A DNA stretch of 64,000 bases from Escherichia coli (GTDB taxonomy: Bacteria > Pseudomonadota > Gammaproteobacteria > Enterobacterales > Enterobacteriaceae). The notes beneath the pieces were generated by a model, which had not been told where the DNA came from, ran no database searches, and saw nothing but the letters and a program-made list of their open reading frames with translations. A program made the translations under genes and the position numbers. Every line of letters begins with the position of its first letter. Positions within the stretch are counted from its first letter, which is position 1. Shown one piece after another: positions 6,120-60,446 of this stretch. The DNA is taken from assembly GCF_003018115.1 (NCBI RefSeq), contig NZ_CP027457.1. The stretch is one strand, 5' to 3'.

Positions 6120-6304
6120 GGTCTTCCCCTCTTGCCCTGTTTGACCATCAGGACGCCGTTAACTATTACGTGACGCTCGCCTTTGCTGTCTCGGTTGTAC
6201 TTGAGCACTGTTCCTCTTGCGCAGGAAAGCATCCTCGCCACTTCGGTCTGATTGCCTCGTGTCTGGATAAGAAGCTCTGGTATCGTTTGAATTGTGGCGT
6301 TCAT
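6116..6304 (-). CDS. ninH: NinH-like protein
   Basis: 62-aa ORF with YGNQTEVARxLxCxRGTVxKY motif resembling lambda NinH; adjacent to Q. Confidence 0.6.
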   Translation of the reverse strand: MNATIQTIPELLIQTRGNQTEVARMLSCARGTVLKYNRDSKGERHVIVNGVLMVKQGKRGRP

Positions 6305-6663
6305 ACGTTCTCCAGTTCGGTGATTTTTATTCCAAGCCTTCCGCCTGGTACTTTCACACCACGAATTACGCGAATGTCATCGAATTGCTCGTCGTCTTCC
6401 GCAAATCCGGCGTGGATAAGGGAGTCGAGTAAACCCTTCAGGATGTTATCGAGGTCGCGGCGGCGGGAGTCTGGAACGTCTGCGATGACTTTGATGCGGA
6501 GTCGTGATTTGGTGAAAATATCTAACTTGAGTTGGCGGATGATTTGCTGAACGTCTTTTCGGTATTTCTGGCCTTTATCGCTGATGTAGTATTGGCTTCC
6601 CCGTCTTCGCCAGTAGGTATTCACCGACGGCGGGTATGGAAGCACAAACCGATATTCATTCAT
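6301..6663 (-). CDS. rusA: RusA-family Holliday junction resolvase
   Basis: 120-aa ORF with RusA signature (PPSVNTYWRRRG...RRRDLDN...GGRLGIKITE). Confidence 0.8.
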   Translation of the reverse strand: MNEYRFVLPYPPSVNTYWRRRGSQYYISDKGQKYRKDVQQIIRQLKLDIFTKSRLRIKVIADVPDSRRRDLDNILKGLLDSLIHAGFAEDDEQFDDIRVIRGVKVPGGRLGIKITELENV

Positions 6664-6950
6664 GACTTAACCTTCCCCTCCTTCAGCAATACCGCCTGCG
6701 TCCTGATCACGCCTTCGAGGTGGTAAAGTCTGGCGTCTTTGTTGTCGAGGTTATGGGTGCGTCGGTCGATTTCATCGTGACACGCGCTACAAGCCCATGC
6801 GCCGATCAGGTCGTCAGGCTTCATTCCCGTTCCGCAAATTCCAGCCATCCGGTAATGTGCCAGAACTGTAGTTTCAGGATTGCCATTGCATACGCCGTAA
6901 ATACGTACCTGGCATTCTCTGCCGCGTGCTTCTTTGCGTAGGTTAGCCAT
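6660..6950 (-). CDS. Cysteine-rich nin-region protein (DUF1364-like)
   Basis: 96-aa ORF with several Cys/His pairs, start/stop overlaps with neighbours. Confidence 0.5.
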   Translation of the reverse strand: MANLRKEARGRECQVRIYGVCNGNPETTVLAHYRMAGICGTGMKPDDLIGAWACSACHDEIDRRTHNLDNKDARLYHLEGVIRTQAVLLKEGKVKS

Positions 6951-7753: not shown

Positions 7754-7926
7754 TTCCTCGCACGATGTCTTAGCCACCGGATATCCCACAGGTGAGCCGT
7801 GTAGTTGAAGGTTTTTACGTCAGATTCTTTTGGGATTGGCTTGCGTTTATTTCTGGAGCGTTTCGTTGGAAGGTATTTGCAGTTTTCGCAGATGATGTCG
7901 GTGATACTTCGTCGCTGTCGTCTCAT
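7750..7926 (-). CDS. ninE: NinE-like protein (58 aa)
   Basis: [51 protein letters not shown]... starting at ATG overlapping the ninB stop; recognised as lambda NinE-like. Confidence 0.5.
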
Positions 7927-8333
7927 TCGTACCTCCTGTCGGTAAATCTGACACCCTGACCAATAGCCCACGCTGTTGTGTACTCAATCAGACTTGCCAT
8001 ACGCTTTACACTCATCTGCGCGCTGCTTTCGCGGATGTTGACGTATTCGCCTTCAAGCCCGGGCAAAACATCAGCTTCCTGCTTTGTTGCCACTGCATGA
8101 CCGCTGATCAACAAAACCTTCCATTGTTCTGGTTTTAACCATTTATCGCGCCACTGAACTTGCCTGGCGATATCTGCGACCATCGCGTGAAATTTTGCGT
8201 TCTGGTCAAGATTTCGCTTGTAGTCAGTAATGCGGATGGTGACTGGCTTGTCTTTATCGAGTGGTGTTGCGAGGATGGCATTTATTGCGGCTTGCTGTTG
8301 TTGCTTAGTTCGGAGGAAGATTGTTTGCTTCAC
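7923..8333 (-). CDS. ninB: NinB (Orf-family recombination mediator)
   Basis: 136-aa ORF in the nin region, recognised by similarity to NinB/Orf. Confidence 0.7.
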
Positions 8334-13684: not shown

Positions 13685-13990
13685 ATGACAGTAGTCATTA
13701 CATATCTGGCTGACGATAACGCCAGAAATCGCCGCAGAGCACGCAGACAGGCTCAACGTGAACAGGCAATGCAAGAGCAGCGACTGGCGCGAAAAATTGC
13801 GCTAAAGCTCTCTGGTTGCGTCAGGGCAGACAAAGCAGCATCACTCGGAAGCCTTCGCTGCCAGAAGGCAGAAGAAGTCGAGCGTAAACAGAACCGTATT
13901 TACTACCGCAAGCCACGCAGTGAAATGGGTGTGACATGCTCAGGCCGCCAGAAGCAACGCGGAAAATCAATTCCAGCTTATTACGATTGA
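13685..13990 (+). CDS. N: N-type antitermination protein (arginine-rich motif)
   Basis: 101-aa ORF with N-terminal ARM (NARNRRRARRQAQREQ); first gene after nutL; central region resembles phage-21-type N as recalled. Confidence 0.6.
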   Translation: MTVVITYLADDNARNRRRARRQAQREQAMQEQRLARKIALKLSGCVRADKAASLGSLRCQKAEEVERKQNRIYYRKPRSEMGVTCSGRQKQRGKSIPAYYD

Positions 13991-15191: not shown

Positions 15192-15216
15192 GCCCTCCAG
15201 TGTGAGGGCTTTTTTA
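15192..15216 (+). terminator. Intrinsic terminator (tL-like) between the small-ORF cluster and cIII
   Basis: GCCCTC-CAGTGT-GAGGGC hairpin followed by TTTTTT. Confidence 0.6.
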
Positions 15217-15281
15217 TATGCATACCAATAACGCTTCACTCGAGGCGTTTTCGTTATGCAATCAAACAGAAGGAGCATCCT

Positions 15282-15452
15282 ATGCAACAGTTCGCTATTG
15301 CAGGGGCGGCATCGGTTCGCCCTTTCAACCCGATTTTATCGGTACAGCATTCACGAAAAAACATTCTAACCGGAGCAGACTTTAAACAACCAAGAATGAA
15401 AAGTTTGCTCGAAAAGCTTTGGGATATTTTGAAACAACAAGGCCGCCCATGA
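15282..15452 (+). CDS. cIII: CIII-like protein (FtsH inhibitor)
   Basis: MQQFAIAGAASV...SLLEKLWDILKQQGRP parallels lambda CIII (MQYAIAGWP...LLERITRKL...); start is an internal ATG of the listed ORF. Confidence 0.65.
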   Translation: MQQFAIAGAASVRPFNPILSVQHSRKNILTGADFKQPRMKSLLEKLWDILKQQGRP

Positions 15453-15533
15453 GTTTTACAGATAGCTGGTCAGACGAAGAATTCATTCGTCAGATGAACA
15501 AAATGCTCAATCAGCACAAAGAACAGGAGAAAG

Positions 15534-15845
15534 ATGATGATTCTGACTCTGAATGATAAGCGTGAAATATCGCAAATAATCGCAAGTTTTACTGATGAAG
15601 ATTACGAACGAATCAACAGTGAAGTTGATCGCCTCTGCAAACGTTGCGACCCAATAAGCGAAATGCTTCGATCATATAAACCAGATGAACACACTAAGGA
15701 CGCTATCGACTGGCTGGAAGATGATGACTGTAACTATCAGGAAAAAGCCGCTGAATGGTTCTGGGATGCAATAACCGAAAGAGTTAAGGCTGAATATGCC
15801 TTCGCAATATTCAAACGCAGACATATTTATGGAGAAGCTGCATGA
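15534..15845 (+). CDS. Hypothetical protein (103 aa) at the gam/kil position
   Basis: Acidic ORF immediately upstream of and overlapping recT. Confidence 0.5.
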   Translation: MMILTLNDKREISQIIASFTDEDYERINSEVDRLCKRCDPISEMLRSYKPDEHTKDAIDWLEDDDCNYQEKAAEWFWDAITERVKAEYAFAIFKRRHIYGEAA

Positions 15846-16744
15846 GCAATATCGTTGAATTCGTTAAACAGCAAGAGCAGTTATTCTGCGGAGCATTGAC
15901 TGAACAGACGGTGACATGGGCTAAGGAAAGCCAGTTTGCAATTCAGTATTTCCAGAAAAACGATTACCTGGCTAAAACAGCACTGGCAAATCCAACCAGC
16001 GCACAGAACGCCATCATCAATGTTGCGGCGATCGGCATCACCTTAAACCCGGCCAGCAAACTGGCTTATCTGGTTCCTCGCGACGGCATGGTGTGCCTTG
16101 ATATCAGTTACATGGGATTACTTCATCTTGCGCAATCGACAGGATCAATTAAGTGGGGGCAATGCAAACTGGTGTACTCAAACGACACCTATGAATCAAA
16201 TGGCCTTGATTCAGCACCAACCCACAAATACAACGCATTTGGTGAGCGAGGCTCTATTGTTGGAGGTTATTGCACGGTTAAAACAGCAGATGGTGACTAC
16301 CTGACTGAAGAAATGAGTCTGGCAGAAATTAAAGCTGTGGAAGCAACGAGCAAGGCAAAGAATGGACCGTGGAAAACATTCTGGGAAGAGATGGCGCGTA
16401 AAACAATAGTTAAACGCGCCAGCAAATACTGGCCTAAAGCCCAGCGACTGGATAATGCCATTCACCTGCTTAACGAAGATGAAGGTGTGCATCAGGAACC
16501 AGTTATGCCGCACAAATCAGAGGAAGATATCCGCGAAGATGAACGGAAACGCCAGCAGGAAATAATGGATAAAGCACAACTTCTTTGCGATGAAATGTCT
16601 CAGGCAGAAAACATGGATGATTTGAAGCGATATTTTGCAGAAGCATATCGCCTGACATCTGGAATGAAATTGCAGCAGAACGTACAAGCCATTTACATAG
16701 AATGCAAAGCGAAACTGGAGGTTGCCAGTGAGCAAACTGTATGA
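15842..16744 (+). CDS. recT: RecT-family single-strand annealing protein
   Basis: 300-aa ORF; motif NGPWKTFWEEMARKTIVKRASKYWP matches the RecT signature. Confidence 0.8.
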   Translation: MSNIVEFVKQQEQLFCGALTEQTVTWAKESQFAIQYFQKNDYLAKTALANPTSAQNAIINVAAIGITLNPASKLAYLVPRDGMVCLDISYMGLLHLAQSTGSIKWGQCKLVYSNDTYESNGLDSAPTHKYNAFGERGSIVGGYCTVKTADGDYLTEEMSLAEIKAVEATSKAKNGPWKTFWEEMARKTIVKRASKYWPKAQRLDNAIHLLNEDEGVHQEPVMPHKSEEDIREDERKRQQEIMDKAQLLCDEMSQAENMDDLKRYFAEAYRLTSGMKLQQNVQAIYIECKAKLEVASEQTV

Positions 16745-17210
16745 AATAGCCAATGAATACGCAAAGCTGATGGATTCAGATTTAGAGCCAGAGATGATTG
16801 CTGACACAATAGAAGGCATGGAAGGAGAATTTACCGATAAAATAGAGCAACTTCTCGCCATTATTAAAAATGAATCTGGTTATGCTGAACGCCTCAAGGA
16901 AGAGGCAAAGTCACTAAATGAGAGAGCCGCAGTAATTCAAAATAAGATTGACAGCATTATGGCGTATATAGCGTCATCGCTTGAAATGGTTGGCAAGAAA
17001 AAGATTCGAGCAGGTATTCACCAGGTAACAATCCGCAAACCGTCAGAAACTGTAGAAATCATCGACTCAAGCGCCCTTCCTCCTGAATACGTTGAATTTG
17101 AAACGACAATTAAAGCCGACAAACTGGCAATCAAACACCAACTAAAAGCAGGAATAAATATCCCCGGCGCTCAACTCAAAGTTGGGAAACCTTCACTTCT
17201 TATCAAATAA
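16722..17210 (+). CDS. Siphovirus Gp157-family protein
   Basis: About 160-aa ORF overlapping recT end; resembles Gp157-family proteins that commonly accompany RecT/Erf genes; probable GTG start at 16728. Confidence 0.45.
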   Translation: MPVSKLYEIANEYAKLMDSDLEPEMIADTIEGMEGEFTDKIEQLLAIIKNESGYAERLKEEAKSLNERAAVIQNKIDSIMAYIASSLEMVGKKKIRAGIHQVTIRKPSETVEIIDSSALPPEYVEFETTIKADKLAIKHQLKAGINIPGAQLKVGKPSLLIK

Positions 17211-17221
17211 CGGTATCGCCT

Positions 17222-17536
17222 ATGAAAAAGACTCCATGGGAGAAATGGGAAGTCGATTTCTTGCGCGAAGTGGCGGCGACAATGCCAGTTGAAGTTATCG
17301 CTGAAAAACTGGAAAGGACTGAAAAAGCAGTAATGGCGAAAGCAACAAGGATTGGAGCTGACATTGTTAGCCGACTTCGTGGAAGACGCTGGACAAGAGC
17401 CGAAGTATCACTTTTCGGTAAGTTCTCCGCAGAAGAAATAGCAATTGCAACCTGCCGCTCAATTTATTCAGTAAGAGCTATGAGATACAAGCTAAAAAAA
17501 CTCGATGAAGAAAGAGCAGGCATACGAATAAATTAA
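17222..17536 (+). CDS. Hypothetical protein (104 aa) with two internal repeats (possible DNA-binding)
   Basis: Two similar segments (WEKWEVDFLREVA...AEKLERTEKAVMAKATRIG and RRWTRAEVSLF...TCRSIYSVRAMRYKLKK). Confidence 0.5.
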   Translation: MKKTPWEKWEVDFLREVAATMPVEVIAEKLERTEKAVMAKATRIGADIVSRLRGRRWTRAEVSLFGKFSAEEIAIATCRSIYSVRAMRYKLKKLDEERAGIRIN

Positions 17537-17973: not shown

Positions 17974-18468
17974 GTGGCGGAGTGGGAAGAAATGAAACTA
18001 ATGTCACTAATTGAGATGGATGGTTTTCTGAAAGGTAAATGCATCCCACGAGATTTAAAGGTTAACGAAACAAACGCTGAATATCTGGTGCGTAAGTTCG
18101 GTGAGCTTGAATCAAAACTGGAAACGGCGTTGCGGGAGTGTCGTTCTGCTGGAATCACGATTGATAACCTTGAGGCTAAATGCGCGAAGATGGCTGCTGA
18201 AAATACCTCGCTTAAGCAATCTGAGAAGGAATTTAATGACTTTTGTCGTGAGGAGTTTAGCGAATGGGAAGATGATGTTACTGAACCCCAAGCCACCGAT
18301 GCTTTCCTGGCTGAAGTCCGGGCTAAGGCGTTTGATGACCTTTGCGCGGCGTTCGTTAAGCACGCGTCGGTGTCCGGGCTGGACGATGGCGACTGCGTTA
18401 CGGTGAAAGAGGCGACTGACGCCCTGCTGCATTGTGCGGAACAGCTTCACGAGGGAGTGCATTCATGA
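17974..18468 (+). CDS. Hypothetical acidic coiled-coil protein (about 158-164 aa)
   Basis: ORF; stop overlaps the next gene's ATG (ATGA). Confidence 0.5.
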
Positions 18469-18707
18469 GCAACCTACTACCATGTCCATTCTGTGGCGGC
18501 GCAGCGCACGTTGCCAGCGAAGCAGATCACCCTGAATATGGCTCTGGCGGTCGATTCTATTTCGTTCGATGCGGTACGTGTCGCGCTCAATCTGGTAGCA
18601 AATATGCAGCGCCTGGAAATGACTGCGCGATTTTTTATTCAGAGGTTAGAGCAGAGTGGAATCAGCGAGCAAAGGAGGCAACCAGTGAGCGGAAAAAGAA
18701 TGACTAA
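18465..18707 (+). CDS. lar: Lar-like restriction alleviation protein (CPFCGG zinc-finger)
   Basis: From ATG 18465: [42 protein letters not shown]..., the Cys pattern of the Lar family. Confidence 0.5.
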   Translation: MSNLLPCPFCGGAAHVASEADHPEYGSGGRFYFVRCGTCRAQSGSKYAAPGNDCAIFYSEVRAEWNQRAKEATSERKKND

Positions 18708-18909
18708 CAGAGAGCTTGTTGATGCCGCCATTAAGCTTGCTGGTGATTTTTATTCAATGATGGGGTACACGCATCGCCCAGGCTTCAAATATTGGGAGTC
18801 TCCGCACCCGCAAGAGCAACTGGTATTTCAAATGGCCTGCCGTGCTTTTGAGGTTATTCGCGGTTCTGATGTGATGGACGCCGTTGCCGACTTGGAGGAT
18901 GAAGAGTGA
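18685..18909 (+). CDS. Hypothetical protein (about 74 aa)
   Basis: GTG at 18685 preceded by AAAGGAGG; overlaps the Lar 3' end in another frame. Confidence 0.45.
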   Translation: MSGKRMTNRELVDAAIKLAGDFYSMMGYTHRPGFKYWESPHPQEQLVFQMACRAFEVIRGSDVMDAVADLEDEE

Positions 18910-20801: not shown

Positions 20802-21020
20802 ATGTACTTGACACTTCAGGAGTGGAACGCACGCCAGCGACGCCCAAGAAGCCTTGAAACAGTTCGTCGATGGGTGCGCGAATGCAGGATATTCCCACCA
20901 CCGGTTAAGGATGGAAGAGAGTATCTGTTCCACGAATCAGCGGTAAAGGTTGACTTAAATCGACCAGTAACAGGTAGCCTTTTGAAGAGGATCAGAAATG
21001 GGAAGAAGGCGAAGTCATGA
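20802..21020 (+). CDS. xis: Excisionase (lambda Xis-type)
   Basis: 72-aa ORF MYLTLQEWNARQRRPRSLETVRRWVRECRIFPPPVKDGREYLFHESAVKV..., recognised as lambda Xis; overlaps int start. Confidence 0.85.
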   Translation: MYLTLQEWNARQRRPRSLETVRRWVRECRIFPPPVKDGREYLFHESAVKVDLNRPVTGSLLKRIRNGKKAKS

Positions 21021-22068
21021 GCGCCGGGATTTACCCCCTAACCTTTATATAAGAAACAATGGATATTACTGCTACAGGGACCCAAGGACGGGTAAAGAGT
21101 TCGGATTAGGCAGAGACAGGAGGATAGCAATCACTGAAGCTATACAGGCCAACATTGAGTTATTTTCAGGACACAAACACAAGCCTCTGACAGCGAGAAT
21201 CAACAGTGATAATTCTGTTACGTTACATTCATGGCTTGATCGCTACGAAAAAATCCTCGCCAGCAGAGGAATCAAGCAGAAGACACTCATAAATTACATG
21301 AGCAAAATTAAAGCAATAAGGAGGGGGCTGCCTGATGTTCCACTTGAAGACATCACCACAAAAGAAATTGCGGCAATGCTCAATGGATACATAGACGAGG
21401 GCAAGGCGGCATCAGCCAAGTTAATCAGATCAACACTGAGCGATGCATTCCGAGAGGCTATAGCTGAAGGCCATATAACAACAAACCCGGTCGCTGCTAC
21501 TCGCGCAGCAAAATCAGAGGTAAGGAGATCAAGGCTTACGGCTGACGAATACCTGAAAATTTATCAAGCAGCAGAATCATCACCATGTTGGTTAAGACTT
21601 GCAATGGAACTGGCTGTTGTTACCGGACAGCGAGTTGGTGATTTATGCGAAATGAAGTGGTCTGATATCGTAGATGGATATCTTTATGTCGAGCAAAGCA
21701 AAACAGGCGTAAAAATTGCCATCCCAACAGCATTGCATGTTGATGCTCTCGGAATATCAATGAAGGAAACACTTGATAAATGCAAAGAGATTCTTGGCGG
21801 AGAAACCATAATTGCATCTACTCGTCGTGAACCGCTTTCATCCGGCACAGTATCAAGGTATTTTATGCGCGCACGAAAAGCATCAGGTCTTTCCTTCGAA
21901 GGGGATCCGCCTACCTTTCACGAGTTGCGCAGTTTGTCTGCAAGACTCTATGAGAAGCAGATAAGCGATAAGTTTGCTCAACATCTTCTCGGGCATAAGT
22001 CGGACACCATGGCATCACAGTATCGTGATGACAGAGGCAGGGAGTGGGACAAAATTGAAATCAAATAA
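20998..22068 (+). CDS. int: Tyrosine integrase (lambda Int-type, 356 aa)
   Basis: 356-aa ORF MGRRRSHERRDLPPNLYIRNNGYYCYRDPRTGKEFGLGRDRR..., recognised as lambda Int; transcribed toward the att junction. Confidence 0.9.
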   Translation: MGRRRSHERRDLPPNLYIRNNGYYCYRDPRTGKEFGLGRDRRIAITEAIQANIELFSGHKHKPLTARINSDNSVTLHSWLDRYEKILASRGIKQKTLINYMSKIKAIRRGLPDVPLEDITTKEIAAMLNGYIDEGKAASAKLIRSTLSDAFREAIAEGHITTNPVAATRAAKSEVRRSRLTADEYLKIYQAAESSPCWLRLAMELAVVTGQRVGDLCEMKWSDIVDGYLYVEQSKTGVKIAIPTALHVDALGISMKETLDKCKEILGGETIIASTRREPLSSGTVSRYFMRARKASGLSFEGDPPTFHELRSLSARLYEKQISDKFAQHLLGHKSDTMASQYRDDRGREWDKIEIK

Positions 22069-57997: not shown

Positions 57998-58451
57998 AAT
58001 CAACCAAATATGTTAATTATGTATAAACCATAGATCATTGGTGATTTTATTGTTAATTTATTGTGAAATATTTATGCAACACAATTATTACAATGAAAAG
58101 GTATAGATAAAAAACCAGTATTTTATTTAACAGAACCGCCTTATCCACTTTTTATAATACCAATTGATTAGAGTAGCCAATTTGTTGCTATTTTACATAA
58201 CATATTTTTATCAAAGTTAATTGATTGTTGCCTTTATGAGCACCGACCGTAAGCCCGTTATGTTATTGTTTCATTAGTAATAATCACTTAAATGTATCGA
58301 TGAAACAGGTATGACTTACCGGGAGTGATTGTTTCTGAGTGAACAGAGGCCACTTTCGCCTGATAAATGAAAAATGAGCGATTTTTGCAAGTTAGTTTTT
58401 CTATAGCCGAGTACGCTCAGCGCCTCGCTTGATTACAATGAGGTTGCTGCT

Positions 58452-59396
58452 ATGAGTCCTGATAATATCGGTTCGGCTGTCAATCGCTTCTCAGGTTGGC
58501 CATCTAATGATCCTCTAAAAACAGATGAAGAATCAATGACATCACCCGTGACTGTGCAAGTAATAAAGATGATTGCCGCCATCCTTGACCCACATCGGAT
58601 AGTCGGTGGAATTGATACACTTTATACAACGCAGCGCGAAACATTTACCTCAGAGAGTCAACAGCTCATTGAATCAGCATTGCAAACACTTCATGTGATG
58701 AATTTAAATAATCTGGAAACAAATCGCGATGAAGAAGGTCACTATCTGGCTTTTGAATATAACGTTGACACCTCTGACAGAATAACCGTTTCTGCTTATA
58801 ATGAAAAAAAGCCTGGCTGCTATGGCCAATGTCTTTTAATACAGGATGACGAAACAGACTTATTTAACCTGATAAAAATTAAAATTTTCGAAGCCAGGCA
58901 TAATTATGTCGCTCAATTGATGAGCGATCCGGAATTTATGTTCAAATTCAGTTATAGCGCTCAACAAAATAGATTAGAACCTCATCTTCTGGTTCCCGCT
59001 TATTTCCCTCTAAAAACAAACGAACCGGTTACGCAAGAGGATGTACTGTTACTTTATCGTTTCTTTAAAATGAATGATGATTTTAATAAATTAACATCAG
59101 AGGAATACATGAGTATCATGACTCCTCTGATGAAGTGTGAGCGTAGCGTCCACGACAACAACAGGTATGTGACGGGCAAAGATACCCTTCTTCTGGACTA
59201 TCCTCCTTCTGGTAACCAGATACATTTCCATATTTTCCCTGACGAATCAGCAACACTAGTCCTTTATTTTTCAAACAATGACCTTGAATGTTTCGTCTTT
59301 GAAAGAGATATTCCTAGCCAGTATCGCTTTTTCAAAATGTTTACCAATCTGGCACTGGTTATAGATCAGTTAACCGAAGCCAATAAAATACTTTAA
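58452..59396 (+). CDS. Hypothetical protein (314 aa), AT-rich, no family recognised; internal YRFFKM repeat
   Basis: Long ORF in a very AT-rich segment; motif LYRFFKMNDDF / QYRFFKMFTNL occurs twice. Confidence 0.55.
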   Translation: MSPDNIGSAVNRFSGWPSNDPLKTDEESMTSPVTVQVIKMIAAILDPHRIVGGIDTLYTTQRETFTSESQQLIESALQTLHVMNLNNLETNRDEEGHYLAFEYNVDTSDRITVSAYNEKKPGCYGQCLLIQDDETDLFNLIKIKIFEARHNYVAQLMSDPEFMFKFSYSAQQNRLEPHLLVPAYFPLKTNEPVTQEDVLLLYRFFKMNDDFNKLTSEEYMSIMTPLMKCERSVHDNNRYVTGKDTLLLDYPPSGNQIHFHIFPDESATLVLYFSNNDLECFVFERDIPSQYRFFKMFTNLALVIDQLTEANKIL

Positions 59397-59476
59397 TTTT
59401 CTATATATCCCTATGGCAAATATTGCTAAACAATGCCTGGGGATTAATTTTTATTACTCACGGAAAGATTTAAATA

Positions 59477-59899
59477 ATGATACCATCTCAGATCTCTTTC
59501 AATACCCTTCCAGTCAATGCAACATACGCTTCAGAGACAACAGTTGACACACAAAAATTCTCTGACATCCTCTACTCAGCGGGGTGTTCCCTAAAGGATA
59601 TGGCTTATCTGAGCAGATGTCTGGCATCAATACACCCGACTCTCGCCAAAAACATTTATGAAACAGAAAATCTCAGCGATCAAAAATTACTGCATATTGA
59701 TTGCCGTAGTACAAATGACATCAAGATAAATATCTTTTTTGGTCAGCAACGAGAAGGATTAATTGAAATTAGTTCTGACACAGTTATTTTTTCGATACTG
59801 TCTTCATTGATTGACTCCGCCATTTCTAAATTTCAACATCAAAACCCCGTTAACGGTTCAGTTAATCCTGAACTATTGTATGAGGATTATACTGATTAA
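59477..59899 (+). CDS. Hypothetical protein (140 aa), AT-rich, acidic C-terminus
   Basis: ORF 80 bp downstream of the 314-aa gene, same strand. Confidence 0.5.
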   Translation: MIPSQISFNTLPVNATYASETTVDTQKFSDILYSAGCSLKDMAYLSRCLASIHPTLAKNIYETENLSDQKLLHIDCRSTNDIKINIFFGQQREGLIEISSDTVIFSILSSLIDSAISKFQHQNPVNGSVNPELLYEDYTD

Positions 59900-60446
59900 A
59901 CCCACCCAGTCGCGAAAAATGGCCTGCGTTATTGCCAGACGTAATAAAACCGTTGATTAACGTTACTCATACTGGTAGCACCTTCATGTACCTCTCTTTT
60001 TTACGAAAAATCAAAAGAGCTAACTAAGGTCATAATTCGCATGAATCATTAACCATTTGTTATTTTCAACATTATTTTTACATTAAGCAGAGATGAATTG
60101 CAGTGAAATTCGACTTAAATCTTATGAAATGCATTTACTCATGGCTAAAACCACGTCACAAAAATGCAAATTAGAAGTAGATCACAATTATCTCAATACA
60201 TTAAATCAAGTTAATTTTAAAAATTTAACATTCATGTCATTAGTTGACATAACACACTGAATTAACATGGAAATTTAAAAACACACTTTAAACAATCATT
60301 TCCCGAAAGACATTTTGAAAATAGATCAATTGCAACATTACGGTCAGATAAAGACACTCCTGTGATATTAAACCTGTGCCGTTATGAACGGCCATAAATA
60401 CGACGTGTGTAACTTATTTTACTCTCTGTCTTACAAAGGATTACCC

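Follow-up and report, generated by a model that had tools for sequence, protein, structure and literature searches.

The 64,000-nucleotide stretch of Escherichia coli DNA analysed here (from contig NZ_CP027457.1; hereafter, the window) holds a lambdoid prophage in which a gene for a RecT-family annealing protein is preceded by one for a small acidic protein (orf102) and followed by one for a Gp157-family protein. The locus raises the question of how an annealing protein is put to use when no exonuclease is encoded next to it. All three genes are real and lie on the + strand in the places given to them by a previous sequence-only reading, as confirmed with Pfam and PHROG (Table 1). The region was assigned to the recombination (Rec) modules of the HK140 sequence type, with the functional type 'annealing protein plus anti-RecBCD, no nuclease, no SSB', and was taken to work by the end-protection mechanism set out below; to this reading, mechanism included, we give a probability of about 0.75.

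The module was compared with that of phage HK140, which is also found in mEpX1, Kapi1 and Gally. Both have the same genes in the same order and in the same pL position after cIII, with neither a nuclease nor an SSB. The proteins of the window are 100% (orf102), 99% (Gp157), 96% (RecT tail) and 85% (RecT core, the most diverged part) identical to those of HK140, and orf102 is likewise 100% identical in mEpX1 and Kapi1. Nucleotide identity to Gally and HK140 is 94-95% over the aligned parts, and HK140, mEpX1, Kapi1, Gally, Louie and others have the block in common at 94-100% identity. The differences are allelic only; outside the block, the flanking pL moron genes vary, as they usually do in lambdoid mosaics. 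Phages deposited as isolates (HK140, mEpX1, Kapi1, Gally, Louie and Dewey) have this same block.

The genes of HK140 are labelled 'RecT-like ssDNA annealing protein' and 'Mu Gam-like end protection' in RefSeq, and its module was catalogued as having an annealing protein of type 4 and an anti-RecBCD of the MuGam type, and as lacking both nuclease and SSB (Zheng et al., 2025, PMC12315714). By gene content, position and near identity, the module of the window falls into the functional type 'P22' of the same catalogue (annealing protein plus anti-RecBCD, no nuclease; 46 phages) and into sequence type HK140, the entry 'anti-RecBCD +' hinging on Gp157 being of the MuGam type. A nuclease-free RecT module of the HK140 type is already known, being annotated in RefSeq phages and catalogued in 2025. 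The missing exonuclease is no anomaly: 84 of 246 lambdoid Rec modules have no nuclease, HK140 being a named example (PMC12315714). The nuclease-free module is itself ordinary and adds nothing new; what interest remains lies in two leads, the RecT tail and orf102. The tracking of tail and partner, and the position of orf102 at the head of Rec modules, appear to go beyond the catalogue of Zheng et al. (2025).

The observation that no RecE-like or lambda-Exo-like gene is present held throughout. No nuclease domain was detected by Pfam and PHROG scans in the 21 open reading frames (ORFs) of the pL operon between N and xis. The nuclease-type genes of the prophage in the window are limited to rusA and ybcO, in the nin region and on the strand opposite to recT. 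Searches by tblastn for lambda Exo, phi80 Exo, SEN22 ExoVIII, lambda Gam and GamL found none of them within 3.5 kb of gp157 in 80 close IMG/VR relatives, which were retrieved with the Gp157 alignment, are 97-99% identical only, and inform on stability, not diversity. The adjacent exonuclease (YqaJ/lambda Exo or RecE/DUF3799) by which two-component recombinases are recognised is therefore missing from this locus, while related modules elsewhere do have one. The order orf35-orf102-recT-gp157-orf104 was kept in 76 of the 80 relatives, and one more fell short by the orf35 match only; taken singly, orf35 was present in 76 and orf104 in all 80. Among 5426 complete E. coli genomes, 264 also have the block at full length. 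Because nuclease-free modules are catalogued and the block is stable in its relatives, the absence of an exonuclease is a normal, stable state and not a gap.

Gp157 matched PF05565 (Sipho_Gp157) with 126.8 bits (cut-off 28.6) over profile positions 1-162 of 162; 28 of 28 aligned relatives matched the family as well. PHROGs and RefSeq give it the label 'Mu Gam-like end protection', and Zheng et al. (PMC12315714) that of 'MuGam'. HHpred of a different PF05565 protein led to the Gam structure 2P2U with 99.4% (PMC10530707), a structure that Mu Gam was found to match with an E-value of 3e-7. Gp157 and Mu Gam are similar in size, Gp157 gives a sub-threshold Pfam match of nearly full length, and the two have collinear conserved C-terminal motifs (G-x-V-x-x-R-x-PS-x-x-V/I...D and K-x-AI...G...G). 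Gp157 is most likely a distant relative of Mu Gam and a putative end protector. Its AlphaFold2 model, with a mean predicted local distance difference test score (pLDDT) of 84, shows a small beta domain behind a long helix (residues 21-88). Against the PDB the model returned coiled coils only, and the profile, compared with PDB sequences, coiled-coil noise only. Several matches of the model in BFVD are much longer viral proteins with annotated PD-(D/E)XK or exonuclease domains, for example a 398-amino-acid protein of Tsukamurella phage TIN4, which hints at occasional fusions of a Gp157-like part with a nuclease.

A helix-turn-helix gene of the Mu gp9 type adjoins the gam-like gene both in Mu (L012 1983-2826) and in the window. 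Mu gp9, encoded directly upstream of Mu gam, falls into the same PHROG ('D5-like' helix-turn-helix regulator, PHROG 323; E-value 5.2e-29) as orf104, encoded directly downstream of gp157, and the two were matched by BLASTP with an E-value of 5e-5. A gene of the orf104 type also follows the Rec genes of SEN22, which has no Gp157, so that the association may be with Rec modules in general.

RecT was matched by PF03837 with 115.7 bits (cut-off 24) and by TIGR00616 with 76.8 bits (cut-off 52.65), and scored 91.4 bits against the Rac RecT equivalog NF007351, under its cut-off of 296. The protein is a member of the RecT family and not an orthologue of Rac RecT, its predicted annealing activity following from family membership. 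The core is 48-57% identical to the RecTs of phi80 (57%), ENT47670 and Midgardsormr38 (48% each) and a metagenomic locus (L016), and the similarity ends at about residue 217. From there on the other four proteins have a tail that is 52-76% identical to lambda Beta residues 183-261, to which the tail of the window RecT bears no similarity. Where such a Beta-type tail stands on a RecT core, a lambda-Exo-type nuclease follows in four of four lineages. The window-type tail (residues 218-300) was found in 24 phage records that make up eight lineages (the HK140 group, HK639, KO-TP1, PA-1, the Aeromonas phages phiA005 and 4_L372X, Pseudomonas phage 15b, and PdC23), and in 8/8 of these a gp157 gene lies beside it. 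Four of the neighbours were confirmed directly with Pfam (E-values at or below 2.5e-34) and the others by tblastn with the Gp157 of the window. In PdC23 the tail stands on an Erf core (57% identity over 46 residues), and a lone HNH gene intervenes before gp157. The pairing of tail and Gp157 spans phages of Escherichia, Klebsiella, Pantoea, Aeromonas and Pseudomonas.

The C-terminal domain of lambda Beta binds Exo and SSB, and the use of tails by other annealases has been stated to be unknown (PMC11611040). Since the type of C-terminal domain tracks the partner (Gp157 or Exo), a contact between RecT and Gp157 is suggested; the pattern sets eight lineages against four and consists of comparative data. 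In the simplest reading, the window-type tail would dock RecT onto Gp157, which would then stand in for the exonuclease not only in gene order but also in the protein pair. Chimeric RecTs were also recorded as such at L007 4309-5238 (ENT47670), L009 4628-5545 (phi80), L008, L016 and L003, with cores 48-74% identical to that of the window and tails 49-76% identical to Beta residues 183-261; their lambda-Exo-type partners are about 80-87% identical to lambda Exo, except at L003, where the contig ends after RecT.

In the mechanism proposed, Gp157, as a putative distant relative of the Ku-like Mu Gam, would bind the double-strand ends of the phage DNA (the injected linear genome and rolling-circle tails), and this binding would keep RecBCD away. 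RecT would anneal single-stranded DNA exposed by host functions, either at replication forks or through resection by, for example, RecQ/RecJ, and the phage proteins NinB/Orf and RusA would take care of the remaining steps. RecT probably touches Gp157 through its C-terminal domain, as lambda Beta does Exo, and would in this way be recruited to ends held by Gp157. orf102 would add a second layer of host-nuclease control or assist RecT. The anti-RecBCD role had formerly been suggested for the small acidic protein, said to be of 103 amino acids; the candidate recognised at present is Gp157 (PHROGs, RefSeq, Zheng et al.).

Several points weigh against this reading. PF07352 (Phage_Mu_Gam) scored 16.6 bits with Gp157 (E-value 0.008; profile positions 29-147 of 149), below its cut-off of 28.3, and reached E-values of 0.1 or lower in only 7 of 28 members of the Gp157 family, the best being 0.0011. 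A comparison by hhalign with an alignment of 23 Mu Gam sequences from IMG/VR loci gave a probability of 0.7%, the C-terminal motifs being collinear, and one with the single Mu Gam sequence was not significant. Mu Gam belongs to PHROG 491 and Gp157 to PHROG 253. Because these direct tests were weak, what carries the link between the two proteins is the curated labels, the catalogue of Zheng et al. and the HHpred result of PMC10530707. An end-capping protein might, moreover, hinder the resection needed for annealing; the source of single strands is assumed, and is the weakest step of the mechanism. The AlphaFold2 model of orf102 (pLDDT 50, from a 5-sequence alignment) was too poor for a fold search, so that its structure says nothing on function.

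Known systems resemble the module in different respects. In P22, a headful-packaging phage to which the prophage is akin, Erf and Abc2 likewise combine an annealing protein with a RecBCD antagonist, and no phage exonuclease is present; Erf stands where the window has RecT, and Abc2 where it has a putative Gam/Ku-like end binder. Abc2 of P22 binds RecC and redirects RecBCD (PMC12315714). Since all the proteins differ and Abc2 redirects RecBCD, single strands are probably generated differently in P22 and in the window. Lambda Red (Gam-Beta-Exo) and the GamL-RecT-Exo genes of phi80 share with the window a three-slot layout after cIII/kil and an annealing protein with a separate C-terminal domain, but the tails are unrelated domains. 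The third slot is filled by a 5'-3' exonuclease in lambda and phi80 and by Gp157 in the window, and the first by orf102, which is not homologous to the Gam of lambda or the GamL of phi80. Mu Gam differs from Gp157 in its Pfam family and PHROG, and acts without a dedicated annealing protein. In the erf/sak4 modules of Firmicutes phages, a gene for Gp157 (Sfi21 orf157-like) or a Mu gam-like gene lies by that for the annealing protein, with no exonuclease (Steczkiewicz et al., 2021, PMC8093625). The Gp157 gene is there upstream of erf/sak4 and an SSB gene follows (PMC8093625), whereas in the window it is downstream of recT and no SSB gene is present.

The second lead, orf102, has an isoelectric point (pI) of 4.65, with 24 D+E and 15 K+R, and 32 of 32 aligned family members are acidic (pI 4.4-5.5). 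The protein is probably all-helical. It has no Pfam or NCBIfam match, and no Pfam match is common to the 32 members. An exhaustive profile search of 1.84 billion proteins returned 54 representatives of the family, about 35 of them full-length (about 100 amino acids). In every context examined, the orf102-family gene is directly upstream of the first Rec gene, usually with a stop/start overlap. It precedes RecT-Gp157 (HK140 group, PA-1); RecT-Exo or Beta-like-YqaJ (ENT47670, Midgardsormr38 and loci L005, L013 and L016); RecE-like DUF3799 and then RecT (phiEt88, L014); DUF3799 or RecT on short contigs that end right after it (L004, L003); and Erf (PdC23). In SEN22 (L006 4498-6196) a 96% identical orf102 is followed by RecE-like DUF3799 and by a 189-amino-acid protein (phrog_11517) that takes up the annealing-protein slot, no recognisable annealing protein being present. 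orf102 is a true member of the Rec module. In the slot of Gam/GamL, it would most likely serve as an accessory factor of recombination or as a second antagonist of host nucleases.

The proposed check of the acidic protein against Gam, Abc2 and Kil was made with hhalign and gave no significant similarity. The orf102 profile yielded a probability of 3.5-3.7% with lambda Gam (PF06064), over a local match of 19 residues only, 0.07% with the profile of phi80 GamL (PF28165), and at most 0.5% with Abc2, Kil and an Arf-like protein (Abc2 and the Arf-like protein being taken from HK106). Homology of orf102 to Mu Gam was considered and rejected, the comparison having shown none. Against the PDB the profile returned designed helical repeat proteins only, a composition effect. 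Most C-termini of the family read E-(A/V)-A, and in the window the codons concerned (15828-15845; GGA GAA GCT GCA TGA) hold the Shine-Dalgarno sequence and ATG of recT; the conserved C-terminus may for this reason reflect signals of translational coupling and not protein function. Other small proteins of Rec modules end in P-F, like the tail of SSB (GamL, ...ICPF; HK106 gp38, ...PCPF; HK106 gp36, ...DDSIPF), and Mu Gam has IIPF near its end. Such ends may mimic the C-terminal tail of SSB.

Chi sites (GCTGGTGG) were counted on both strands. The prophage part of the window (1-22100) has none and the host part (22101-64000) has four. At least four Chi sites were found in 18 of 25 phages without an anti-RecBCD and in 24 of 202 with one, and Chi-poor genomes are typical of inhibitor-encoding phages (Zheng et al., PMC12315714); the Chi-free prophage part fits the pattern that was tied there to phages encoding an anti-RecBCD. 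The same count was made for four complete phages that have orf102 and a nuclease but no recognised anti-RecBCD gene, and gave zero Chi in 186.7 kb, about 5.7 being expected at equal base use.

These counts bear on the possibility that orf102 is the real RecBCD (or SbcCD) inhibitor of the module, a non-homologous analogue of Gam/GamL, with Gp157 doing another main job such as the loading of RecT at ends, end joining or circularisation. We regard this as possible but rather unlikely. orf102 lies exactly in the gam/gamL slot and interchanges with GamL in otherwise matching modules: orf102-RecT-Exo (ENT47670, Midgardsormr38, L016) corresponds to GamL-RecT-Exo in phi80, and orf102-RecT-Gp157 (HK140) to GamL-RecT-Gp157 in HK639 and KO-TP1. 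Members precede first genes as different as those for RecT, Beta-like, Erf and RecE-like proteins, and their uniform acidity is what DNA-mimic inhibitors tend to show. The absence of Chi from the four nuclease-bearing phages points the same way, but this argument is indirect, as the four are not independent and 7 of the 25 phages without an anti-RecBCD also have fewer than four Chi sites (PMC12315714). Nor is there detectable homology to lambda Gam, GamL, Abc2 or Kil, a relative of solved structure beyond the designed repeat proteins, or a confident model. In the window, such an inhibitor would also duplicate the function assigned to Gp157, yet HK639 has both GamL and MuGam (PMC12315714). Gene position and Chi sites, not homology, thus keep the inhibitor idea plausible. 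A broader proposal is likewise put forward only tentatively, namely that the orf102 family (phrog_3486; restricted to lambdoid phages of Enterobacterales) comprises non-homologous host-nuclease inhibitors or recombination accessory proteins, and, separately, that Gp157 is a dedicated partner of annealing proteins through a portable C-terminal domain of 45-80 residues.

The other alternatives concern the missing nuclease or Gp157 itself. That Gp157 is a cryptic nuclease, and so the partner that went unrecognised, is very unlikely, since it has no PD-(D/E)XK motif and no nuclease is among its top PDB matches. The BFVD matches to PD-(D/E)XK/exonuclease proteins (the TIN4 protein at an E-value of 5e-3, and weaker ones named 'exonuclease'), a touch of Pfam Exo5 in 1 of 28 family members (E-value 0.062) and the order alpha-beta-beta-beta-alpha-beta in the C-terminal part of the model speak for it. 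The invariant residues H98, R103, D113, E123 and K129, however, form no D...(D/E)xK motif on predicted strands, the BFVD targets are much longer and more simply read as fusions with a Gp157-like part, and the best-scoring remote family is Mu Gam. Slightly less probable again is decay, in which the module would be what is left of a RecT-exonuclease pair after the loss of its nuclease and would no longer serve a purpose. The same RecT core does occur with Exo in phi80 and ENT47670; but isolate phages carry the block, it is intact in the 264 complete genomes and 76 of the 80 relatives, and its genes are full-length with their coupling signals preserved. A distinct, conserved RecT tail that travels with Gp157 across five host genera is, moreover, not what the loss of a partner would yield. 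Least probable of all is a phage-resistance or -sensitivity determinant unrelated to recombination. Some records do label Gp157 'resistance protein', words that presumably echo the Pfam family description and not a tested activity. No experimental report tying Gp157 to resistance was found in the literature, and none supporting the link to phage sensitivity that the sequence-only reading had mentioned. Two further points count against such a role: gp157 constantly neighbours genes for annealing proteins (in this analysis those for RecT and Erf; in phages of Firmicutes erf and sak4, PMC8093625), and the annealing-protein tail co-varies with Gp157.

If the RecT tail is a Gp157-docking domain, recombineering could employ RecT together with Gp157 to protect linear DNA while RecBCD is not shut down globally. 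Docking by the tail would answer whether annealases besides lambda Beta pick their partners by their tails, and Gp157 plus annealase would form a two-component recombinase of the 'end-binder plus annealase' kind, a counterpart of the exonuclease-annealase pairs. If orf102 inhibits RecBCD or SbcCD, a further family of inhibitors would be added and the sorting of lambdoid phages into 'Chi-rich versus inhibitor-encoding' would shift, with many phages scored as being without an anti-RecBCD in fact having one.

Table 1. Coordinates of the module, of its parts and of related prophage genes in the window.
Feature	Position	Strand	Basis
Terminator-like hairpin with T run after it, shortly before the cIII-like gene	15192-15217	+	Sequence scan
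cIII-like gene, upstream neighbour of the module	15282-15452	+	AGGAG ribosome-binding site before ATG 15282
orf35, 35 codons	15449-15556	+	phrog_17766, E-value 1.1e-14; annotated in Kapi1
orf102, small acidic protein	15537-15845	+	phrog_3486, E-value 1.7e-59
recT, 300 amino acids	15842-16744	+	PF03837, E-value 2.7e-33; phrog_148, E-value 2.5e-91
RecT annealing core, residues 1-217	15842-16492	+	PF03837 over residues 31-214
RecT C-terminal domain, residues 218-300, proposed Gp157-interaction module	16493-16744	+	Sequence comparison
gp157, 160 amino acids, putative Mu-Gam-like double-strand-end protector	16728-17210	+	PF05565, E-value 1e-36; phrog_253, E-value 2e-53
orf104, helix-turn-helix protein, phage Mu gp9 family	17222-17536	+	phrog_323, E-value 2.8e-20
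NinB/Orf recombination mediator, nin region, outside the module	7923-8333	-	PF05772, E-value 4.6e-53
RusA Holliday-junction resolvase, nin region	6301-6663	-	PF05866, E-value 1.1e-16
YbcO putative nuclease, nin region	6660-6950	-	PF07102, E-value 3.2e-44

The gene boundaries of the sequence-only reading stood except for two start codons. That of orf102 is most likely at 15537, which gives 102 amino acids (not 103) as annotated in HK140 and Kapi1. For gp157, GTG 16728 is the most likely start, with GGAGG 6 nucleotides upstream and the 160 amino acids of all homologues; TTG 16722 is less likely. orf102 and recT overlap by ATGA and recT and gp157 by 17 nucleotides; from cIII to gp157, neighbouring genes overlap by ATGA or by 17-23 nucleotides. 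cIII-orf35-orf102-recT-gp157-orf104 makes up one tightly packed block in the pL operon, apparently translationally coupled, and no terminator-like sites were seen on the + strand in 15282-17536. Located after the cIII-like gene and orf35, orf102 fills the gam position of lambda, and gp157 sits in the slot held there by exo.

The hairpin before the cIII-like gene is probably a tL-type terminator read through by N antitermination; a rho-independent terminator is annotated at the same position before cIII in HK106. The cIII-like product is 100% identical to that of the HK140 gene annotated CIII, and in homologous loci Pfam Lambda_CIII is found at this position. orf35 overlaps cIII by ATGA and also overlaps the start of orf102. 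Its first 20-30 residues (MSF(T/A)D(S/N)WSDEEFIRQM) are common to a small 'recombinase'-labelled gene of HK106 and Sf6 (phrog_2123), after which the sequences diverge, at what looks like a mosaic joint. A database protein (P0025) is a natural fusion of orf35 with the C-terminal half of orf102.

The window consists of the early region of the lambdoid prophage followed by E. coli host DNA. On the + strand, the leftward pL operon extends from an N-like gene (13685-13990) as far as xis. The rightward operon, on the - strand, comprises cro, cII, an O-like gene, a DnaB-type helicase gene, the genes for NinB, NinX, YbcO, RusA, Q and Rha, and those for the P22-type small and large terminase. The integrase gene (20998-22068) and the excisionase gene adjoin the host gene ybhC, and several E. 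coli chromosomes have this prophage-host junction at 99.5% identity; the prophage is lambdoid and P22-like, integrated at att-lambda beside ybhC. A lambda-type integrase (20998-22068) is combined with packaging genes of the P22 type, for a gp3-like small and a T4-type large terminase (within 216-2181), which is typical of lambdoid mosaics. A Lar-like restriction-alleviation gene (18432-18707; PF14354, E-value 1.9e-9) overlaps, in another frame, a 138-codon ORF (18493-18909) with no family match, the true start of which is probably internal. In the host DNA, the 2 kb at 58001-60000 have a guanine plus cytosine content of 0.367, against about 0.50 around them, and may be a small horizontally acquired island.

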